Source: Candidatus Marinacidobacterales bacterium | GTDB taxonomy: Bacteria > Acidobacteriota > Vicinamibacteria > Marinacidobacterales > DATDRI01 | Direction of reading: 5' to 3' | Assembly: GCA_965219415.1 (NCBI GenBank) | Contig: CBDCNP010000002.1 | Span: 4,640,001-4,704,000, forward strand | DNA length: 64,000 nt | Shown here: positions 6,281 through 61,098 of the stretch, one piece after another | Layout of the letters: each line of letters begins with the position of its first letter | Numbering within the stretch: position 1 is the first letter of the stretch | Made by a program: the position numbers and the translations under genes | The notes under the pieces: model-generated | Seen by the model: the letters and a program-made list of their open reading frames with translations, nothing else | The model's database searches: none | Told to the model about the DNA's origin: nothing

Positions 6281-6531
6281 CGTGGACTCCTGTCTCCCAA
6301 AGGATTAGGTGTCCACGAAAGCGGGTCAAGTCCACTCAAAGTCGTTGACACGTTCCGCCGGTCGCAAACACAGACACTAAGCTGCTGATTTATGGCCTAT
6401 TTCAAAAGGGCTGAGTTTTGGCACAGGACGGGCTAAAATCCTCGGTCATGAGCACACGGTCTGCTTAACTTGACGATACTTTGTGGAGGCTAGACTCCGA
6501 GAGCGAGCCCCGTATGCCGAGTTCCTCGTCC

Positions 6532-8559: not shown

Positions 8560-8725
8560 GGTGCTTCCGCTGTTTACTGTTGGTGATATGTACGCATCCC
8601 TTTGCAAAAGAGGCACTTACGTTCCATTTAGCGCGCGGGGAAGGTCACAAGCGCTATTTTGACTGTAACTTAATGCACTGTAAAGTCTTAGCGTCATCTC
8701 ACCAACACTTGATGGCGGAAGCACC
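8560..8725 (+). mobile_element. 166-bp IS1-family MITE, copy 1
   Basis: Ends GGTGCTTCCGC.../...GCGGAAGCACC, the same as the IS1 element at 46062. Confidence 0.9.
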
Positions 8726-11510: not shown

Positions 11511-11626
11511 CGGGGTCGGAAGCCAGTCCTGCGGCGCGAAATACCCTGGATTCTGCGCGGATTCCAAGGGCGTCTAAGCTGCTGATTTGCGGTCTATTTC
11601 AAAAGGGCCGAGTTTTGGCACAGGAC

Positions 11627-12137
11627 GGGGTCGGGGACACGACCGAGTTCGTGATCGGCAGCGGCGGGAAGCTTTATCTCGCGGCGCTCCTCGACCTCTA
11701 CTCGCGATTCCTCGTTGGGTGGGCCGTAAGTGCTATTAACGACCGTCACCTGGTTATCAAGGCGTTGCGGATGGCACTGAAACGTCGCCAACCGGCCGCG
11801 GGGCTCTTGCATCACTCCGATCAGGGCAGTCCGTATGCCAGCAAAGACTACCAACGTCTCCTTGAGACGCATGGCATGACCGGGAGCATGAGCCGACGGG
11901 GCAACTGCTACGACAACGCCGTCATCGAGAGCTGGTTCTCCACGGTCAAGCACGAGCTTGGGGAGCATTTCCTCAGTTGCGGCGAGGCCAAGATGGCCCT
12001 CTTCGACTTCATCGAGGTATTCTACAACCAGAGACGACGACACTCGACCCTCGGCCAGGTCAGTCCGGCCGAGTTTGAACGACGGATGAGGACTTCGCCA
12101 GCTTAACTAAACCGTCTACGAAACCGGATCAAGCCCA
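11627..12137 (+). pseudogene. IS3 orfB 3' fragment with right IR
   Basis: LDLYSR, HHSDQGS, NCYDNAVIESWF; ends ACCGTCTACGAAACCGGATCAAGCCCA. Confidence 0.85.
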
Positions 12138-15227: not shown

Positions 15228-15405
15228 TGTGCCTTCTATTTATTCATCCGCGCGCCCCGAACCTGATCGGTCTCCGATCTGCCGGGACTATGCCTGCATG
15301 ATTTCGTCGTTTGTTTGCGCTCGGCCCTGGGCACGGCCGCAAACACAGACTCTAAGTTGCTGATTTATGGCCTATTTCGAAAGGGCCGAGTTTTGGCACA
15401 GGACG
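15228..15405 (+). mobile_element. 178-bp two-ended mini-element (TGTGCCTTC...GGCACAGGACG family)
   Basis: Near-identical copy at 52102-52278; shorter and longer versions at 49983-50074, 51404-51786, 60697-60844. Confidence 0.85.
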
Positions 15406-15713
15406 AGGTCGGCGAAATCCTAAACGGCCGGTTGAAAGACGGGAAGGTCAAGTACGCTACGACCGCGACGAAGTCTCGCCCGCGGAACTGGAAGAGGTCG
15501 GCGTGGCTGCTCGCGCGGCGGTTCCCCGATAGGTGGGGGCCACGAGCAAAAAGAGAAGCTCACGAAGGAGAGGCTCGCGATAGACAACCCACCGTCATTT
15601 GCCTCCTACCGGATAATGGACGTGTGCGCCGAATGGGGGAGAATAAGACTGCGCAATTGCCAGGAAAGAGGCCAAGAGCGGACAATTCCGTGAATTTTAA
15701 GATTCCCCCAAAC

Positions 15714-19007: not shown

Positions 19008-19101
19008 AGGTTTTCGTGCTCAGTAGGGCGCGCAACCCGGTCTCTTCTGCACCTGTACCACTGCCCGCAGCTGCGTAGCAACACTTGATGGCGGAAGCAC
19101 C
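19008..19101 (+). mobile_element. IS1-family right-end fragment carrying an EMPTY IS1111 target site
   Basis: Matches 47168-47243 and continues uninterrupted as TAGCAACACTTGATGGCGGAAGCACC. Confidence 0.92.
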
Positions 19102-22675: not shown

Positions 22676-22882
22676 AGGTTTGAGCTGCAGCTTCGCCGAC
22701 GAGAGCGTGGGAACCAGGAGACTCACGACATGGACAACGAACACATCCGTGCCCTGGCGCACGGGTTGCCGCCCACCGGCCGGGAAGGCATCGGAGTCGA
22801 TCGACTGATCATGATCTGTACCGACTGGCGATCCGTCCGCGACGTCATTCTCTTTCTTCACATGCGTCCTGAGACTCTTTAG
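22676..22882 (+). pseudogene. lysS: Degenerate 3' fragment of lysyl-tRNA synthetase
   Basis: RFELQ...[50 protein letters not shown], LysRS class II motif 3 and C-terminus. Confidence 0.8.
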
Positions 22883-23199
22883 TCGACCTCCATGCCTTAC
22901 GAATGGTGCTTCCGCCATCAAGTGTTGGTGGCTGCCGCGTAACCCGCTCGTGTGCTAGAGTTTGAGCTTGATTTCGAGAGACGCAGTTCTTTCGGCGATG
23001 CGGGTTGGGCTGACCACACGGTGCCTGACGTTCAGAGACACCTTCGTGTGCACGCCGACATCCTTATTAATGGCGTTCGCCGACACAGGCAGGCCAGTTG
23101 ACACTAGCATTCAAACACGGCGTAGCAACATATCTGGACTCCTCTAGTCAAGCCCCTTTCTTTCTAGTCACGCCCCTTTCTTAATAAATCTTCCATCGA

Positions 23200-23400
23200 A
23201 GCTGCGCATCCATCGCGTCGTGACGAGTGGGTCAGACTGCAAACGTATCTTCGGCCTCAGTGAGGAGCGTCTTGGGTGCTCCGGGCCATGATGGAAAATC
23301 CGCGCGCGAGGAGCCAATCACTTTGAACGACCTCTTAGGGCCAGTGTTGCTATTGGCTTGACCCCGCGCCGGTCCGACCGGTACGCCATCAGTTGGATGG
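23200..23400 (-). ncRNA. Predicted bridge/seek RNA of the IS1111-like element (also about 29592-29792 and 47313-47513)
   Basis: RNA-sense guides TAGCAACA (23352-23345), AAGTG (23323-23319), TTCCATCAT (23296-23288), AGATA (23250-23246) match target and donor halves; closing stem AGCCAAT/ATTGGCT; boundaries approximate. Confidence 0.8.
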
Positions 23401-23460
23401 GTATCGTCGCAGCCTCTTTTGGAAGGGAAAAAGGAAAACACGAAAGTGGAGCCTCTAAAT

Positions 23461-24492
23461 CTAAGCGGCCACCGGCGACTGGAATTCACTCTCGCGGGTG
23501 GAGACGGCCCAGACGATCCGGGCGAGTTTGTTGGCGACAGCAATCACGGCCTTGTTGTGTCCCCGCGAGCGGTGGACCTTCCGAGCCCAGGCGCGGAGCT
23601 TGTCGGGCGGGCTCTTGCTGACGTTCGCCGCGCGGAGCACGGCGCGCCCGCCCTGGGTGAGGAGCATACGGAGGTAGGAGTCGCCACGCTTGGTGATGCG
23701 TCCGAGGCGGCGAATGTCGCCACTGGAGTTTTCCTTGGGAACTAGGCCGAGGTAGCTCGAGAAGCGGCGCCCCGATGGGAAGCGGCGAAGATCGCCGACG
23801 AAGCCCACGATGGCGGTCGCGGCCAGAAGTCCGATGCCGGGAATGGCGAGAAGTCGTTGGACTTCAGGAAGCTGCTTGGTGAGCGCCTTGAGCTCGTGCT
23901 CGATGCTAGCGCACTTGTCCTTGAGTTCTCGAATCTCGGAGCAGGCATCACGGAGATGCGAACGGAGCACGTCGGGCAAATCAGAATCAGCGTCTTCGAC
24001 GAGTTCGAAGAGGGCGGGCACGACGAAGTGAGCGCCCTTTGGGATGATGAATCCGAGTTCGCGCAGGAGCCCGCGTACGGCATTGATGCGTGCGGTCCGT
24101 GTGGAGAGCCATCCTGAGCGCAGGCGATGGAGCGCAGCGAGGGTGTGCTGGTGCACGGACTTGATGGGTACGGGAAGAAGCTCCTCGTTCCTGTAGGCCT
24201 CGAGCAACGCCTTCGTGTCGGCGCGGTCGTTCTTGCTCCCGCGTCGATACGGCCTCACGAGGTGAGGTGGGAGCAGGACGACGTCGTGTCCCAACCTTCG
24301 GAACGTCCTTGCCCAGAAGTGAGCCGAGCCGCAGGCTTCGAGAAGCACGGTGGCAGCGCTCTGTTTGGCAAAGAACGACACCAATTTGGGTCGACTCACA
24401 CGGAGTTGCTTGGACACCTTCCCCGCTTCTCCCGAGATGGCAATCTCGAAGACGTTCTTTGCAAGATCCACAGCGATTGTCGTATCTTTCAT
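23461..24492 (-). CDS. IS110/IS1111 recombinase, 343 aa
   Basis: AVDLAK, LEACG, KNDRAD, GLVPKENSSG; AGGAGG RBS before ATG 24492. Confidence 0.95.
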   Translation of the reverse strand: MKDTTIAVDLAKNVFEIAISGEAGKVSKQLRVSRPKLVSFFAKQSAATVLLEACGSAHFWARTFRRLGHDVVLLPPHLVRPYRRGSKNDRADTKALLEAYRNEELLPVPIKSVHQHTLAALHRLRSGWLSTRTARINAVRGLLRELGFIIPKGAHFVVPALFELVEDADSDLPDVLRSHLRDACSEIRELKDKCASIEHELKALTKQLPEVQRLLAIPGIGLLAATAIVGFVGDLRRFPSGRRFSSYLGLVPKENSSGDIRRLGRITKRGDSYLRMLLTQGGRAVLRAANVSKSPPDKLRAWARKVHRSRGHNKAVIAVANKLARIVWAVSTRESEFQSPVAA

Positions 24493-24593
24493 TCGGACTC
24501 CTCCTTTTCGATGCGTATTCGACTGACTTTGGCACATCGATGCCGTCTATGTCAGTGGAGGAGTCCATTCCATCACTTGATGGCGGAAGCACC

Positions 24594-24934
24594 CGCTCTT
24601 GGCGTGGAGTGCGCCCGCGACCGCCACTAGAACCAGTGTAAGTCCGCCGAAGACGGCGGACTTACACGTGAGAAGCGTCCCTCCGGCGGCTATCTGGAAA
24701 GAGGGCGCGTGCCCCAGCCACCAAGAAAGCATGGGCAATGCTGGTGCACCCGTACGTTCGTGGTCCATCGGGGTTCCAAGCGAACCCATTTCCGGCCAGA
24801 ATATTGTCGGTGTAGCGCAGAAACATATAGGCATCGTCGACCCTGGTGCTCTCGGCCGCGAGCATCCGATACGCGTAAAACCCGACCATCTCCACCATCA
24901 GCAGCGGAATGACGAGAGTGGGCGTCCACCTCAT
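24594..24934 (-). pseudogene. 5' fragment of a second AftB-like GT-C gene, cut by an IS1 end
   Basis: VDDAYMFLRYTDNILAGNGFAWN...YGCTS. Confidence 0.7.
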
Positions 24935-29542: not shown

Positions 29543-30967
29543 TATCTGGACTCCTCTAGTCAAGCCCCTTTCTTAATAAATCTTCCATCGAAGCTGCGCA
29601 TCCATCGCGTCGTGACGGGTGGGTCAGACTGCAAACGTATCTTCGGCCTCAGTGAGGAGCGTCTTGGGTGCTCCGGGCCATGATGGAAAATCCGCGCGCG
29701 AGGAGCCAATCACTTTGAACGGCCTCTTAGGGCCAGTGTTGCTATTGGCTTGACCCCGCGCCGGTCCGACCGGTACGCCATCAGTTGGATGGGTATCGTC
29801 GCAGCCTCTTTTGGAAGGGAAAAAGGAAAACACGAAAGTGGAGCCTCTAAGTCTAAGCGGCCACCGGCGACTGGAATTCACTCTCGCGGGTGGAGACGGC
29901 CCAGACGATCCGGGCGAGTTTGTTGGCGACAGCAATCACGGCCTTGTTGTGTCCCCGCGAGCGGTGGACCTTCCGAGCCCAGGCGCGGAGCTTGTCGGGC
30001 GGGCTCTTGCTGACGTTCGCCGCGCGGAGCACGGCGCGCCCGCCCTGGGTGAGGAGCATACGGAGGTAGGAGTCGCCACGCTTGGTGATGCGTCCGAGGC
30101 GGCGAATGTCGCCACTGGAGTTTTCCTTGGGAACTAGGCCGAGGTAGCTCGAGAAGCGGCGCCCCGATGGGAAGCGGCGAAGATCGCCGACGAAGCCCAC
30201 GATGGCGGTCGCGGTCAGAAGTCCGATGCCGGGAATGGCGAGAAGTCGTTGGACTTCAGGAAGCTGCTTGGTGAGCGCCTTGAGCTCGTGCTCGATGCTA
30301 GCGCACTTGTCCTTGAGTTCTCGAATCTCGGAGCAGGCATCACGGAGATGCGAACGGAGCACGTCGGGCAAATCAGAATCAGCGTCTTCGACGAGTTCGA
30401 AGAGGGCGGGCACGACGAAGTGAGCGCCCTTTGGGATGATGAATCCGAGTTCGCGCAGGAGCCCGCGTACGGCATTGATGCGTGCGGTCCGTGTGGAGAG
30501 CCATCCTGAGCGCAGGCGATGGAGCGCGGCGAGGGTGTGCTGGTGCACGGACTTGATGGGTACGGGAAGAAGCTCCTCGTTCCTGTAGGCCTCGAGCAAC
30601 GCCTTCGTGTCGGCGCGGTCGTTCTTGCTCCCGCGTCGATACGGCCTCACGAGGTGAGGTGGGAGCAGGACGACGTCGTGTCCCAACCTTCGGAACGTCC
30701 TTGCCCAGAAGTGAGCCGAGCCGCAGGCTTCGAGAAGCACGGTGGCAGCGCTCTGTTTGGCAAAGAACGACACCAATTTGGGTCGACTCACACGGAGTCG
30801 CTTGGACACCTTCCCCGCTTCTCCCGAGATGGCAATCTCGAAGACGTTCTTTGCAAGATCCACAGCGATTGTCGTATCTTTCATTTGGACTCCTCCTTTT
30901 CGATGCGTATTCGACTGACTTTGGCACATCGATGCCGTCTATGTCAGCGGAGGAGTCCATTCCATCA
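29543..30967 (-). mobile_element. IS1111-like element, copy 2 (1425 bp), in an IS1 right IR
   Basis: Flanks GCGTAGCAA[CA] and [CA]CTTGATGGCAGAAGCACC; lacks the 20-bp duplication of copies 1 and 3. Confidence 0.95.
29853..30884 (-). CDS. IS110/IS1111 recombinase
   Basis: Two amino-acid differences from copy 1. Confidence 0.95.
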   Translation of the reverse strand: MKDTTIAVDLAKNVFEIAISGEAGKVSKRLRVSRPKLVSFFAKQSAATVLLEACGSAHFWARTFRRLGHDVVLLPPHLVRPYRRGSKNDRADTKALLEAYRNEELLPVPIKSVHQHTLAALHRLRSGWLSTRTARINAVRGLLRELGFIIPKGAHFVVPALFELVEDADSDLPDVLRSHLRDACSEIRELKDKCASIEHELKALTKQLPEVQRLLAIPGIGLLTATAIVGFVGDLRRFPSGRRFSSYLGLVPKENSSGDIRRLGRITKRGDSYLRMLLTQGGRAVLRAANVSKSPPDKLRAWARKVHRSRGHNKAVIAVANKLARIVWAVSTRESEFQSPVAA

Positions 30968-45853: not shown

Positions 45854-46170
45854 TGTGCATCGTCAAAACTGCTCCGCCCACGAAATCAAGGACTTACGCT
45901 CCGCTTGAATTCCGGGCCGAAGACGGCGAAACTCCGCCGCTATGCTCAACGTTGTTGTCTTCTTCGTCTCACTTGGCGTCCGTGCCATTCGGGCGATGTG
46001 TCGGCGCCGCGCCGACCTGGTGTTGGAGAACGTCGCTTTGCGGCAGCAAGTGACGGCGCTGGGTGCTTCCGCAATTAAGTGTTGGCGGCCAGCCCCTAAC
46101 CGGTCTGCGTGCTAGAGTTTGAACCAGAATTCCGAAGACACAGTTCTCTCATCGTCAGGGCCGAGCCAAA

Positions 46171-47238
46171 GTGAAGAATCGCAGATGTCTCAATCTCGCA
46201 TGTCCGTTGCGGGGCAAAGTCAGTTCCGGAAACATCGTTCGCCACGGATTCTACCGAACCAGGTCCGGGAAACGCCGTCGATACCGGTGCGGCGAGTGTG
46301 GAAAGACGTTCTCTTCGACGAAAGGCACGCCCTACTACCGTCTCCAACATCGAAGAGCTACTTTCGAAGGGGTCATCGCTCTCAGAGTCGAGGGTGTCAG
46401 CATTTCCGCGATTTCCCGGATCAAAGGGATTGCCTGGAACACCGTCGCCCGCTGGCTCGAGAAGGCAGCCCAAGTGTGTCGTCGATTCAATCACAGAAGG
46501 ATCGCTGGCTTCGCCGCCGAAGAGCTTCAAGCCGACGAGATTCGCACGTTCGCGGGCAACAAGAAGACACCGAGTTGGGTCTTCGTTACGATCGAGGTCT
46601 GGTCTCGGCTCTGGCCATCGACGGCGACGGGAAGGCGAAGCTACCGGAACACTCACGCTCTGTTTCGCGACCTTTCGAGACGGATGAATTTCGAGCGTCT
46701 TCCCTTGATCGTCACGGATGGATTCGAATTCTACCAGAAAGTCATCCGTCGCTTCTTCGGTCCGGCGTGTCTCTACGGCCAGGTCCTAAAAACGCGCAGG
46801 AACGATTGCATCATCAAGGTCGAACGGAGAGCGCTGCACGGAGCCGCGTGGCGATTCGAAGACGCGCTCAATAACTCCGAGGACTCTTCGACATTGAACA
46901 CGTCGTTCATCGAGCGGTTGAATCTGACCATCCGGCAAAGCTCGGCATACCTTTCGAGACGAACGCTTTCCCACGCTCGCTCGACGGAGAGGCTCGATGA
47001 GCACCTGGAGTTGCTCCGTTGCTATTACAACTTCGTCCGACCGCACGGAGCTCTGAAGTTCGGACGTGAGATCCGAACTCCGGCTATGCAGGCTGGTCTG
47101 ACGACGCGACGGCTCACCTTTCGAGACATCTTCTTGGCGACGACGATTCCTTTGTGGTCGCGGATCGAGGTTTTCCTGCTCAGTAGGGCGCGCAACCCGG
47201 TCTCTTCCGCACCTGTACCACTGCCCGCAGCCGCGTAG
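46171..47238 (+). CDS. IS1-family transposase (single ORF)
   Basis: Zn ribbon CxNxxC...RYRCGECGKTF, HTH, QADE, IVTDG, NTSFIERLNLTIR. Confidence 0.85.
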   Translation: MKNRRCLNLACPLRGKVSSGNIVRHGFYRTRSGKRRRYRCGECGKTFSSTKGTPYYRLQHRRATFEGVIALRVEGVSISAISRIKGIAWNTVARWLEKAAQVCRRFNHRRIAGFAAEELQADEIRTFAGNKKTPSWVFVTIEVWSRLWPSTATGRRSYRNTHALFRDLSRRMNFERLPLIVTDGFEFYQKVIRRFFGPACLYGQVLKTRRNDCIIKVERRALHGAAWRFEDALNNSEDSSTLNTSFIERLNLTIRQSSAYLSRRTLSHARSTERLDEHLELLRCYYNFVRPHGALKFGREIRTPAMQAGLTTRRLTFRDIFLATTIPLWSRIEVFLLSRARNPVSSAPVPLPAAA

Positions 47239-47243
47239 CAACA

Positions 47244-48688
47244 TATCTGGACTCCTCTAGTCAAGCCCCTTTCTTTCTAGTCACGCCCCTTTCTTAATAA
47301 ATCTTCCATCGAAGCTGCGCATCCATCGCGTCGTGACGAGTGGGTCAGACTGCAAACGTATCTTCGGCCTCAGTGAGGAGCGTCTTGGGTGCTCCGGGCC
47401 ATGATGGAAAATCCGCGCGCGAGGAGCCAATCACTTTGAACGACCTCTTAGGGCCAGTGTTGCTATTGGCTTGACCCCGCGCCGGTCCGACCGGTACGCC
47501 ATCAGTTGGATGGGTATCGTCGCAGCCTCTTTTGGAAGGGAAAAAGGAAAACACGAAAGTGGAGCCTCTAAATCTAAGCGGCCACCGGCGACTGGAATTC
47601 ACTCTCGCGGGTGGAGACGGCCCAGACGATCCGGGCGAGTTTGTTGGCGACAGCAATCACGGCCTTGTTGTGTCCCCGCGAGCGGTGGACCTTCCGAGCC
47701 CAGGCGCGGAGCTTGTCGGGCGGGCTCTTGCTGACGTTCGCCGCGCGGAGCACGGCGCGCCCGCCCTGGGTGAGGAGCATACGGAGGTAGGAGTCGCCAC
47801 GCTTGGTGATGCGTCCGAGGCGGCGAATGTCGCCACTGGAGTTTTCCTTGGGAACTAGGCCGAGGTAGCTCGAGAAGCGGCGCCCCGATGGGAAGCGGCG
47901 AAGATCGCCGACGAAGCCCACGATGGCGGTCGCGGCCAGAAGTCCGATGCCGGGAATGGCGAGAAGTCGTTGGACTTCAGGAAGCTGCTTGGTGAGCGCC
48001 TTGAGCTCGTGCTCGATGCTAGCGCACTTGTCCTTGAGTTCTCGAATCTCGGAGCAGGCATCACGGAGATGCGAACGGAGCACGTCGGGCAAATCAGAAT
48101 CAGCGTCTTCGACGAGTTCGAAGAGGGCGGGCACGACGAAGTGAGCGCCCTTTGGGATGATGAATCCGAGTTCGCGCAGGAGCCCGCGTACGGCATTGAT
48201 GCGTGCGGTCCGTGTGGAGAGCCATCCTGAGCGCAGGCGATGGAGCGCAGCGAGGGTGTGCTGGTGCACGGACTTGATGGGTACGGGAAGAAGCTCCTCG
48301 TTCCTGTAGGCCTCGAGCAACGCCTTCGTGTCGGCGCGGTCGTTCTTGCTCCCGCGTCGATACGGCCTCACGAGGTGAGGTGGGAGCAGGACGACGTCGT
48401 GTCCCAACCTTCGGAACGTCCTTGCCCAGAAGTGAGCCGAGCCGCAGGCTTCGAGAAGCACGGTGGCAGCGCTCTGTTTGGCAAAGAACGACACCAATTT
48501 GGGTCGACTCACACGGAGTTGCTTGGACACCTTCCCCGCTTCTCCCGAGATGGCAATCTCGAAGACGTTCTTTGCAAGATCCACAGCGATTGTCGTATCT
48601 TTCATTCGGACTCCTCCTTTTCGATGCGTATTCGACTGACTTTGGCACATCGATGCCGTCTATGTCAGTGGAGGAGTCCATTCCATCA
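47244..48688 (-). mobile_element. IS1111-like element, copy 3 (1445 bp)
   Basis: Same ends and CA core as copy 1. Confidence 0.95.
47574..48605 (-). CDS. IS110/IS1111 recombinase
   Basis: Translation identical to copy 1. Confidence 0.95.
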   Translation of the reverse strand: MKDTTIAVDLAKNVFEIAISGEAGKVSKQLRVSRPKLVSFFAKQSAATVLLEACGSAHFWARTFRRLGHDVVLLPPHLVRPYRRGSKNDRADTKALLEAYRNEELLPVPIKSVHQHTLAALHRLRSGWLSTRTARINAVRGLLRELGFIIPKGAHFVVPALFELVEDADSDLPDVLRSHLRDACSEIRELKDKCASIEHELKALTKQLPEVQRLLAIPGIGLLAATAIVGFVGDLRRFPSGRRFSSYLGLVPKENSSGDIRRLGRITKRGDSYLRMLLTQGGRAVLRAANVSKSPPDKLRAWARKVHRSRGHNKAVIAVANKLARIVWAVSTRESEFQSPVAA

Positions 48689-48706
48689 CTTGATGGCGGA
48701 AGCACC

Positions 48707-51218: not shown

Positions 51219-52331
51219 ACGTGGTTCGCAGCACTGAAGATCCTACCTCACATACGGCCACACGCGCCATGCTGAAATGGGGCTGTCCTGAGAAACCTGT
51301 GACCCGAAAAAAGAAGCTCGTGTATCGACGGCGTCGTGTCCGAAAATTCGAACTGAGCCGAAAGTCTGAATTTTCGAGGCGTTGTCGAAATTCGCGGAGA
51401 CCCCGTCCTGTGCCAAAACTCGGCCCTTTTGAAATAGACCATAAATTAGCAGCTTAGTGTCTGTGTTTGCGACCGGGCCAAGGGCCGTAAGTGTGGACGA
51501 GCAGGACTGGTTCGCGGTCGAATGGGACGACGGCGGCGGCGAAGGCGACAAACGCCCCGCACCTGGACCAGAATGTGCTAGGCCAGCTACACGGCGATAG
51601 CTCCGGCCTCGATTCTGGGCTTCTCGGGTGGCTGCCGAAGATCGACATTTCTCGAGAGTCAGCTCGCGACGAGCCTTAAAGGCAGAGACGAGAGCGCGAA
51701 CAAACGACGAAATCATGCCGGCATGGTGCCGGCAGACCGGAGACTAATCAAGTTCGGTGCGCGCGGATGAATAAATAGAAGGCACAACACACCGAGCTTG
51801 AGAGCGGTCACGCACCGACCGTCTCCTACGGCGAAAGTCGTCGCACTGCCGCGAGTCGGTGGATTGCACCATCGATACGAGTGGCGAGAGGCAGCCTGAG
51901 TCAGCTTGGTCGCTCGCGTTACTCGGCTGGTCGCCGAGAAGTTCGTCCTCAGCACCTTTCCTCGCGCGCTGACCACGCTCTCCAGCATGTGCTCGAGGGC
52001 AGTCCGGGCCTAGAGTCCAGTCCCGGACAAATAATGATGATGGACAGCCCAGAATCCCTGCCAATCCTCACTTCAGGAGCAAAATGCTGAAGGCACCCAG
52101 TTGTGCCTTCTATTTATTCATCCGTGCGCGCCGAACTTGATCGGTCTCCGGTCTCCCGGGACCATGCCTGCATGATCTCGTCGTTTGTTCGCGCTCGGCC
52201 TTGGCACGGCCGCAAACACAGACACTAAGTTGCTGATTTATGGGCTATTTCAAAAGGGTCGAGTTTTGGCACAGGACGACCAGCGCCCGGCCGTGATAGT
52301 CTTCACGCTGAACCGAAGAAGGAGAGGTGGC

Positions 52332-56138: not shown

Positions 56139-56689
56139 CACGGACCTCGGGACACATCCCCTAGCAACACTCGATGACGGAAGCACCTTTGCGGACCACA
56201 AGCAGCTGATCACTCGTCAACCCCCATCTGGATCTCACCATTCCTGAGATAGGAAGAAACGGTCACGGACGGCAACCCACCGCACTGACTAGCATGCAGG
56301 GCTACGTGGGTGTATCGTGTGGGGCCCATCGCGAATCTGAATGTAAAGTAACGTGACTGTGATCCGGCAACACAAATCGGTAGTCTCGTCCGTTGCGGCC
56401 GTTATTGCCGTCATCTGTCACCCGGGAATTCTCTGGGCCCAGAATTGTGTCGACCTTTCGCCCCGTGTCGAGGTCAGCCAGCAAAGGCTTGCGGTCAAGT
56501 TGTCTGGAAGTTGGGAGTTCTTCACTCCCGAGTCTCCAGAGAGGAAAGTAGCCCTCCGACTATGCTTACTGCATCGGCGAATGGTATGCCGCGCGGAGAG
56601 CTGACAGAGGCCAGAGCGTGGCTGTGCGACACGCCGGTCCACATGACTTTTTACGACGGTGAGCGATCTCAGGGTCTTCGAAAACCAAA

Positions 56690-60332: not shown

Positions 60333-60844
60333 GGCAATCGAGCCATGACAGCCTCATTCCCACCGAGAATTGTCAAGCCAGATGAAAGTGGTATCAAATG
60401 TCGGGTGGTGGCAATCTGGAACGGGCAGACGAGGAGCGGAGACGCCGTGGGGCTGCCTTGGTGCACAACTCCGATAGAGGCCGAGAGCTCGCTTGGCCCC
60501 GGCTCCCATCATCCGATCATCTCGCTATTAGGCATCCCGAGCACCGTCATGGTGTTGAGAATCTTGCACCCGATCCTTGCCTCACCTCTCTGTGCCGCCA
60601 ACCCTCTCGCTCGCATCGCTGAGCCCACGATAGCCTTGTAGCGATGGAACGTTGTCTCGACTTTGCTCCGTTTGCTGTAGCCCGATTCTGTGTGCCTGTG
60701 CCTTCTATTTATTCATCCGCCAGCCCCATGGGTCGGAAGTCAGCCCTGCGGCGCGAAATACCCTGGATTCTGCGCGGATTTCAAGGGCGTCTAAGCTGCT
60801 GATTTGTGGTCTATTTCAAAAGGGCCGAGTTTTGGCACAGGACG

Positions 60845-60996
60845 GGGTCCATTGGTACAACACGCAACGACTCTTGGAGCCGATCGGAAATGTCTCCCCC
60901 GTCGAGTACGAGATGAACTACTATCGGTCGCAGGAAGGCTCGCTAGAGATGGCGAGACTCAACTAAAACAGTCTCCGGAAAACCCGGGGCGGTTCA
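60845..60996 (+). mobile_element. IS3-family 3' fragment with right IR
   Basis: VHWYNTQRLLEPIGNVSPVEYE; GTCTCCGGAAAACCCGGGGCGGTTCA. Confidence 0.8.
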
Positions 60997-61098
60997 GCTT
61001 GGCGTTTAGGAACATCTTGGTGTGCACGCCGACACAGGTAGTCCAACTGACACTAGCATTCAAACGCGACGTAGCAACACTTGATGGGGCGGAAGCAC
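60997..61098 (+). mobile_element. IS1-family right-end fragment with an empty IS1111 target
   Basis: Related to 23030-23130; TAGCAACACTT at 61072-61082. Confidence 0.8.

Follow-up and report, generated by a model that had tools for sequence, protein, structure and literature searches.

The window analysed here, 64,000 nucleotides of contig CBDCNP010000002.1 (positions 4,640,001 to 4,704,000, forward strand) from the Candidatus Marinacidobacterales bacterium assembly GCA_965219415.1, carries three copies (A, B and C) of an IS1111-type insertion sequence, all on the minus strand. The sequence evidence makes it very probable that this is an autonomous element of the IS1111 group, directed by a structured RNA into the right ends of an IS1-like family and of the associated miniature inverted-repeat transposable elements (MITEs). 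Its site specificity, its discrimination between the two host ends, a conserved RNA fold and covariation between guides and flanking DNA are directly supported. From these we infer that the RNA is made and bound, that a circular intermediate exists and that insertion disables the host end.

In the mechanism that we propose, the non-coding region 3' of the transposase gene would give rise to a structured RNA of about 170 nt, which would guide the DEDD/Ser recombinase. One internal loop of this RNA would recognise the target by pairing with TAGCAA-CA on one strand and with CA-CTT on the opposite strand; a second would pair with the abutted element ends TTCCAT-CA-TATCT. A circular form of the element would thus recombine at a CA core located 18 bp within the right terminal inverted repeat carried by the IS1-like family and its MITEs.

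The element and its family

The transposase matches DEDD_Tnp_IS110 (PF01548; 45.9 bits, cutoff 29) and Transposase_20 (PF02371; 85.5 bits, cutoff 21.3), as well as the NCBIfam model NF033542, 'IS110 family RNA-guided transposase' (302.9 bits, cutoff 140). It has both domains that define the IS110 family, an N-terminal DEDD (RuvC-like) domain and a C-terminal Transposase_20 domain, and the GLVPKENSSG stretch in its translation, as read from the motif, fits the family's Ser-Gly pattern G--P----SG. The pattern GL-P----SG is quoted for IS1111-type enzymes (PMC11187229). The layout is also that of the IS1111 group: about 80 nt precede the gene on its 5' side, and the stop codon is followed by 330 nt of non-coding DNA. 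Near each end the element carries a perfect 10-bp subterminal inverted repeat (TGGACTCCTC), set back from the tip by 6 nt at one end and 4 nt at the other, and a 2-nt core is common to both ends; these values differ slightly in length from the 11-13-bp repeats and the extensions of 7 and 3 bp published for the group (PMC11187229). Additionally, every resolvable junction has the same single target and the same orientation. In the features that can be tested in sequence, then, the element is a member of the IS1111 group of the IS110 family. A first-pass annotation of this DNA had proposed an IS1111-type recombinase, and the family models, the layout and site-specific insertion into right repeats all uphold it. 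Among proteins of solved structure, only the IS621 and ISCro4 enzymes are related, through a distantly similar C-terminal domain (E = 9e-8 and 2e-8), and the best 120 protein-search matches bear generic names only ('IS110 family transposase', 'transposase').

The span first assigned to the element, 23121-24593, does contain it but takes in flanks of the host repeat; the element itself has the limits given for copy A in Table 1. Copy C is 20 bp shorter because it has one unit instead of two of a 20-bp repeat near the non-coding end. This tandem duplication (23145-23184; TAGTCAAGCCCCTTTCTTTC / TAGTCACGCCCCTTTCTT..) includes a TTGACT box, and the repeat is single-unit in copy C and in the copies of a related genome, G034. 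At the opposite end, the subterminal repeat (GGACUCCUCC in the minus-strand RNA, 24558-24567) is predicted to pair with the ribosome-binding region GGAGGAGUCC (24495-24504), which immediately precedes the start codon. The modelled fold has a free energy of -32 kcal/mol (z = -3.65), none of 200 shuffles is as stable, and both motifs are kept in homologues; in read-through transcripts the ribosome-binding site is probably masked.

Table 1. Coordinates in the window of the element copies, the predicted guides, the empty targets and the host elements.
Feature	Position	Strand	Details
Copy A, IS1111-type element	23131-24575	-	1445 bp, junction to junction, one CA core copy counted; 100% identical to copy B
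Copy B, IS1111-type element	47244-48688	-	100% identical to copy A; within full-length ~1.2-kb IS1-like element
Copy C, IS1111-type element	29543-30967	-	1425 bp; 99.3% identical
Transposase gene, 343 amino acids	23461-24492	-	Open reading frame; PF01548 + PF02371; NF033542; GLVPKENSSG motif
Non-coding region 3' of transposase gene, predicted bridge/seek RNA	23131-23460	-	Guide matches, homologue alignment, fold
Subterminal inverted repeat, non-coding end, TGGACTCCTC	23135-23144	.	4 bp from tip
Subterminal inverted repeat, transposase-proximal end, GAGGAGTCCA	24558-24567	.	6 bp from tip
Predicted target-loop 5' guide UAGCAACACU	23343-23352	-	Identical to window + strand TAGCAA-CA-CT of target
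Predicted target-loop 3' guide CAAAGUG	23319-23325	-	AAGUG is the reverse complement of CA-CTT
Predicted target-loop basal stem, 3' strand AUUGGCU	23312-23318	-	Pairs with AGCCAAU at 23352-23358; 94.7% of cells paired, 2 compensatory pairs
Predicted donor guide UUCCAUCAU	23288-23296	-	Matches TTCCAT-CA-T of joined ends
Predicted donor guide AGAUACG	23244-23250	-	Reverse complement of TATCT + core, one core mismatch in this genome
Empty target TAGCAACACTTGATGG	19076-19091	+	Sequence match
Empty target TAGCAACACTTGATGG	61072-61087	+	Sequence match
~240-bp MITE-like host of copy A	22905-23130	+	Last 18 bp at 24576-24593
IS1-like host of copy B up to insertion point	46062-47243	+	Last 18 bp at 48689-48706
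IS1-like transposase open reading frame (host of copy B), 355 amino acids	46171-47238	+	Best family IS1, sub-threshold

One site at one host end

On the plus strand of the window every copy reads GCGTAGCAA-CA-[TATCTGG...TTCCAT-CA]-CTTGATGGCGGAAGCACC and then continues into unique DNA. DNA further upstream differs among the three, confirming the earlier observation of insertions at 23131, 29543 and 47244 in right ends with dissimilar upstream sequence. The empty targets listed with them, at 19076 and 61072, are present, and the variant at 56162 has two mismatches to TAGCAACACTTGATGG. Allowing up to two mismatches, the target occurs seven times in the window, compared to 0.05 matches expected by chance. 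Ends of the form CACCAACACTTGATGG lie at 8700, 32259, 42276 and 22915 (minus strand).

We extended the search to the whole genome (8.05 Mb, 3 contigs), where blastn found 27 full-length copies, 3 near-full copies and 4 fragments, with 29 intact 343-aa frames. All resolvable junctions fall between TAGCAA-CA and CTTGATGG, 18 bp inside the right terminal repeat of the IS1-like element and its ~240-bp MITE. Among the left junctions listed, 28 of 30 end in TAGCAACA, one ends in GCCGCCAACA and one belongs to a copy nested in another copy. The right junctions listed all run into the terminal 16 nt of the host repeat (33 of 33; TGATGGCGGAAGCACC in 30 and one-base variants in 3), and the DNA beyond the repeat differs at 32 of the 33, with one pair having it in common. 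At G000:C3:3315127-3316857 a full copy begins immediately after the first 285 bp of the element. This partial copy lies in a normal target, and the locus represents either a nested insertion or a rearrangement.

To describe specificity we counted all host ends in the genome as matches to the outer 18 nt of the repeat with at most three mismatches and classed them by the 6 nt to the left of the CA core. This collection of copies and flanks, which the first-pass annotation had suggested, yielded 499 host ends, 33 of them occupied. The element is present at 28 of 112 ends with a perfect TAGCAA (25%) but at none of the 40 ends with one mismatch, and at only 1 of all 351 ends with one to six mismatches (CGCCAA, three mismatches; Fisher p = 7e-18 for perfect versus mismatched sites). 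Ends that lack the CA core are occupied in 1 of 33 cases (the nested copy), and three truncated copies that cannot be classified are all occupied. The left repeat of these hosts has CACCAA and never carries an insertion; the element therefore distinguishes one host end from the other. Most MITE ends, with CACCAA or a similar sequence, are likewise spared. This agrees with the earlier remark that CACCAACA-type ends stay empty, and the five MITE ends on which that remark was based belong to unoccupied classes.

Identical junctions could also reflect common descent, with a few insertions followed by movement of the composite by the IS1-like transposase. In favour of such passenger spread, the outer 18 bp of the host repeat are still present at the tip, and occupancy is uneven: 10 of 20 hosts of the ~240-bp MITE type carry the element, compared to 3 of 27 of the ~1.2-kb type. 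This bias therefore leaves room for some spread by co-mobilisation of a MITE and its insert. To examine independence we built a tree from the 200 nt that precede each of the 112 TAGCAA-type ends; many of its tips are near-identical, and resolution is weak there. A few occupied MITEs adjoin in this tree, but occupied ends are scattered through every host clade, and parsimony requires 27 changes for the 28 occupied tips, much as for shuffled labels (mean 25.2, range 19-28). Moreover, at least six different upstream host sequences bear the insert.

Copies in another genome, G016, which has a variant of the element at 94% identity, argue further against a passenger. Six of its eight two-ended copies lie outside the host repeat, and all six keep AAGTG or GAGTG as the left flank. 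Two of them (L031 and L032) keep TGTTGCT on the right, while the other right flanks show a partial guide fit or element-internal DNA; the right flank of L027 is another IS110 fragment, leaving only its left junction informative. One left flank is inside a DUF4178 reading frame, and the flanks of L032 have no Pfam match. These insertions fit recognition of a short sequence and not of the host element as such. Passenger spread also leaves the covariation of guides and flanks, described below, unexplained, and we consider it improbable as the main cause of the pattern. The first-pass proposal of independent insertions is largely upheld. Gene conversion or homologous recombination among the hundreds of related host ends (499 repeat ends) might likewise have distributed an insert, but homology to the right of the insert amounts to only 18 bp, upstream homology stops within about 11 bp in several host classes, and in G016 there are insertions outside host repeats. 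We judge this route extremely improbable.

The predicted guide RNA

Read in the transposase sense, the non-coding end contains AGCCAAU-AGCAACACU...CAAAGUG-AUUGGCU, then UUCCAUCAU, then AGAUACG. The predicted target loop is made up of AGCCAAU, UAGCAACACU, an inner hairpin, CAAAGUG and AUUGGCU, and the predicted donor loop of UUCCAUCAU, an inner stem and hairpin, and AGAUACG. The guide complementary to the top strand (transposase sense) stands first. Four guides had been read from the window at first pass. Their order, the AGCCAAU/AUUGGCU stem, the matches and covariation in homologues all stand, apart from AGAUA, which is followed by CG and so has a one-base mismatch to the CA/TG core.

Both analyses that had been recommended for this region, folding and covariation across homologues, give a consistent picture. 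We aligned 19 homologous non-coding regions, anchored on a conserved AUUGGCUCC.CGCGCG motif. The resulting fold contains two internal loops and 36 pairs, in which 90.9% of alignment cells are paired, compared to 31-46% when the partners are slid by 1-3 columns. Changes that compensate on both sides occur at 18 pairs, compared to 7.3 in shuffles, and 0 of 500 shuffles reach the observed value. A conserved secondary structure with internal loops, as in bridge and seek RNAs, is thus present in the alignment. Either a small hairpin (columns 18-21/28-31, 81.6% paired) or, alternatively, a closing helix (columns 23-28/184-189, 73.7% paired) may also form. In a predicted long-range helix, the CCAUCA of the UUCCAUCAU guide pairs with an upstream UGAUGG, which is an RNA copy of the element's own left end (23283-23296 with about 23386-23391; columns 8-13/111-116). 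This helix covaries, with three of six pairs changed on both sides. In the G008 homologue it consists of AAAUGG and CCAUUU, and covariation preserves it even in the absence of the DNA match.

The guides change together with the flanking DNA. We compared 14 lineages, whose transposases are 46-100% identical, with 20,000 re-pairings of guides and flanks. No re-pairing equalled the observed fit, either for the 5' guide with its own right flank or for the 3' guide with its own left flank, a result that is not an exact probability since the lineages are related and three have one target in common. In the G008 element (61% amino acid identity) the 5' guide GCAACUGCG goes with the right flank CGCAGTTGC and the 3' guide GUCCGGACG with the left flank GTCCAGATG; in the G425, G433 and G349 elements (57%) the corresponding pairs are UAGCAGCC with GGCTGCTA and UCACCACG with TCACCATG. 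One close relative, L029 (94%), has a rewritten 5' target guide, GAUAACAAUCG, and a new site that matches it (right flank TGATTGTTATC); the empty L029 target has no match at up to two mismatches in G000, G016, G018 or G034. The donor guide tracks the element end in the same way. Most lineages have AGATA with AGAUA, G248 has ATATA with AUAUA (GUAUA in its second copy, L106), and a Steroidobacteraceae copy has ATACA with AUACA. Left ends that start with ATGG go with CCAU and those that start with ATGA go with UCAU, the latter in four lineages. As in bridge and seek RNAs, the guides match both strands of the target and of the joined ends, and they covary with them.

These results bear on the alternative that the transposase protein alone recognises the host repeat and that matches in the non-coding region are incidental. 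The matches are short (5-10 nt), and the guide RNA is predicted from sequence only, both of which are compatible with protein-only recognition. However, guides change with flanks in 14 lineages while compensatory changes keep the stems, the L029 element differs in both loop and site at 94% protein identity, and RNA guidance has been established experimentally for related elements (PMC11187229; PMC11208160). Recognition by the protein alone is very improbable.

The core dinucleotide follows a pattern of its own. Most homologues have three guides that specify CG and one that specifies TG; their transposase-proximal junction reads TG, and the other junction reads CG, or TG in 2 of 8 copies of one family. 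In the 57%-identical family (L087-L089, L101, L103, L108-L110) the junction at the non-coding end is CG in six and TG in two, with TG always at the other junction. This pattern is consistent with a heteroduplex at the first core base. In the genome studied here TG (CA on the plus strand) is found in the target, at both junctions and in three guides, and only AGAUACG keeps the C, giving one mismatch; the G016/G018 variant carries AGAUAUG and matches the core in full. The equivalent guide of IS621 pairs, once strands have been exchanged, with the core of the incoming target.

Several points weigh against guided insertion, in addition to the MITE bias and the relatedness of the lineages in the permutation test. 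The right flanks of two homologues (L104 and L098) are a poor fit to their own guides. In this genome the target 3' guide is short, at 5 nt, and AGAUACG mismatches the core at the base noted above. The UUCCAUCAU guide is predicted to pair inside the RNA with UGAUGG, which makes its free availability uncertain. An Rfam scan of 22800-24800 at E values up to 1 returned no bridge-RNA family; a microRNA match in the same scan was dismissed as chance. No sigma-70-like site was found in a promoter scan of the integrated copy (23050-24650) with a consensus that may not be that of the phylum, and the two terminator-like sites in this interval are within chance range. By eye, the joined ends would read TTGACT, an 18-nt spacer and TGaTGGAAT, a candidate promoter. 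Finally, the RNA-library data are assembled contigs only and give no transcript ends, strand or level. Twenty sequencing runs contain part of the stretch, three of them recorded as RNA, and the four that we examined all consist of contigs. One RNA-library contig spans 23406-23557 without differences, and another spans a related MITE end followed by an uninterrupted host repeat; neither weighs for or against expression. No joint of the element ends, as expected for a circle, was seen in the four contig-type runs, which cannot exclude one.

The long-range helix invites a further, doubtful extension of the RNA-guided reading. The UGAUGG/CCAUCA helix might act as a built-in switch, either blocking donor binding before the RNA is processed or exchanging strands with the DNA end. 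Combined with end-specific attack and a possible piggy-back on MITEs, this would make the element a regulated hyperparasite of another transposon, which we regard as conceivable but unlikely.

Host element, relatives and known systems

The host family has two main forms, a ~1.2-kb element with a 355-aa open reading frame and a ~240-bp MITE-like derivative. IS1 is the top-scoring family for the host transposase, which reaches 84.6 bits against a cutoff of 100 for the NCBIfam model transpos_IS1 (NF033558). Further matches are weak and below their cutoffs (PF03400, 20.6 versus 24.1; the IS1/IS1595 Zn domain, 20.1 versus 28), and there is a weak helix-turn-helix match as well. IS1 makes target duplications of 8-9 bp; no direct repeat of at least 4 bp was found at 66 of 73 host copies, with offsets allowed. 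Because the score is below threshold and target duplications are lacking, we call the host IS1-like and not a member of the IS1 family. From its sequence, it may represent a distinct IS1-related group. The claim made at first pass, of a new guide-target pair that parasitises an IS1 family, thus stands for the pair and is narrowed to an IS1-like element for the host.

Four of the occupied host elements border on a single, shared position in a further repeat family (GGTCTATTTCAAAAGGGCC...; G000:C3 right flanks 4353100, 5075518, 5113838 and 5599454), and the IS1-like element itself may prefer this repeat. The family also occurs in the window at 6351-6431, 11548-11628, 15326-15406, 52199-52279 and 60765-60845. 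Overall, the window is unusually rich in repeats, with 30 direct-repeat families and 31 inverted pairs of at least 40 bp.

Searches of 41 related genomes recovered the transposase from 7. None of the 7 other members of the same family has it, and a sister family has it in 6 of 17 genomes, with identities reaching 98%. Named relatives that carry it are 'Candidatus Marinacidobacterales' metagenome-assembled genomes. Sampling across the phylum (401 genomes) gave homologues at E <= 1e-70 in 19, with identities of 46-62% apart from this genome's own copies. In G034, a genome from a different family within this order, the element (98% protein identity) again lies in the host repeat described here (L002, L009, L013-L024). 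Together with the absence from the seven genomes of the same family, these sequences suggest recent horizontal transfer of both the element and its host.

The IS1111-type elements IS4321/IS5075 reportedly insert at one fixed position and in one orientation inside the terminal repeat of another transposon, going by the title of a 2003 paper by Partridge and Hall as it is cited. Compared by description, the element studied here likewise uses one fixed position and orientation in the terminal repeat of another element. It differs from IS4321/IS5075, whose host is a Tn3-family transposon, in that the hosts are an IS1-like element and its MITEs in marine Acidobacteriota and that only one of the two host ends is used.

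Closer mechanistic parallels come from the seekRNA elements ISEc11, ISKpn4, ISPst6 and ISPa11, which by experiment make and need their RNA (Siddiquee et al. 2024, PMC11187229). According to the same paper, they have a downstream non-coding region, subterminal repeats and an enzyme of 330-350 aa, as here, and IS1111-type seekRNAs also place the guide complementary to the top strand before that for the bottom strand and undergo natural reprogramming. Their targets (a linear site, attC and REP sequences) differ from that of the present element, which is known from sequence alone. Like the IS621 bridge RNA, the predicted RNA has two loops, one for the target and one for the joined ends, each pairing with both strands around a 2-nt core (Durrant et al. 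2024, PMC11208160; Hiraizumi et al. 2024, PMC11208158). The present system departs from IS621 in the position of the RNA, 3' of the gene, and in having a reversed guide order, long subterminal repeats, a CA core instead of CT and a covarying long-range helix over one donor guide.

The mechanism is already established, and attack by the IS1111 family on the terminal repeat of another transposon via a guide RNA is a known principle (IS4321/IS5075; seekRNA/bridge RNA). Literature searches returned no description of an IS110/IS1111 element that targets IS1-family ends; such a case could be listed among the more than 300 elements covered by the target tables that supplement Siddiquee et al. and Durrant et al. 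What is new is this particular guide-target pair, directed at the right end of an IS1-like element in marine Acidobacteriota, its discrimination between host ends and a large natural set of near-cognate sites. The case reveals no new mechanism; it documents one mobile element preying on one specific end of another. A single genome provides a natural specificity experiment, with about 460 near-identical candidate sites that differ at few guide-facing bases, and close relatives supply natural off-target sites and one naturally reprogrammed guide. Such data could help to define how far IS1111-type bridge/seek RNAs, which have received less study than IS621, tolerate mismatches.

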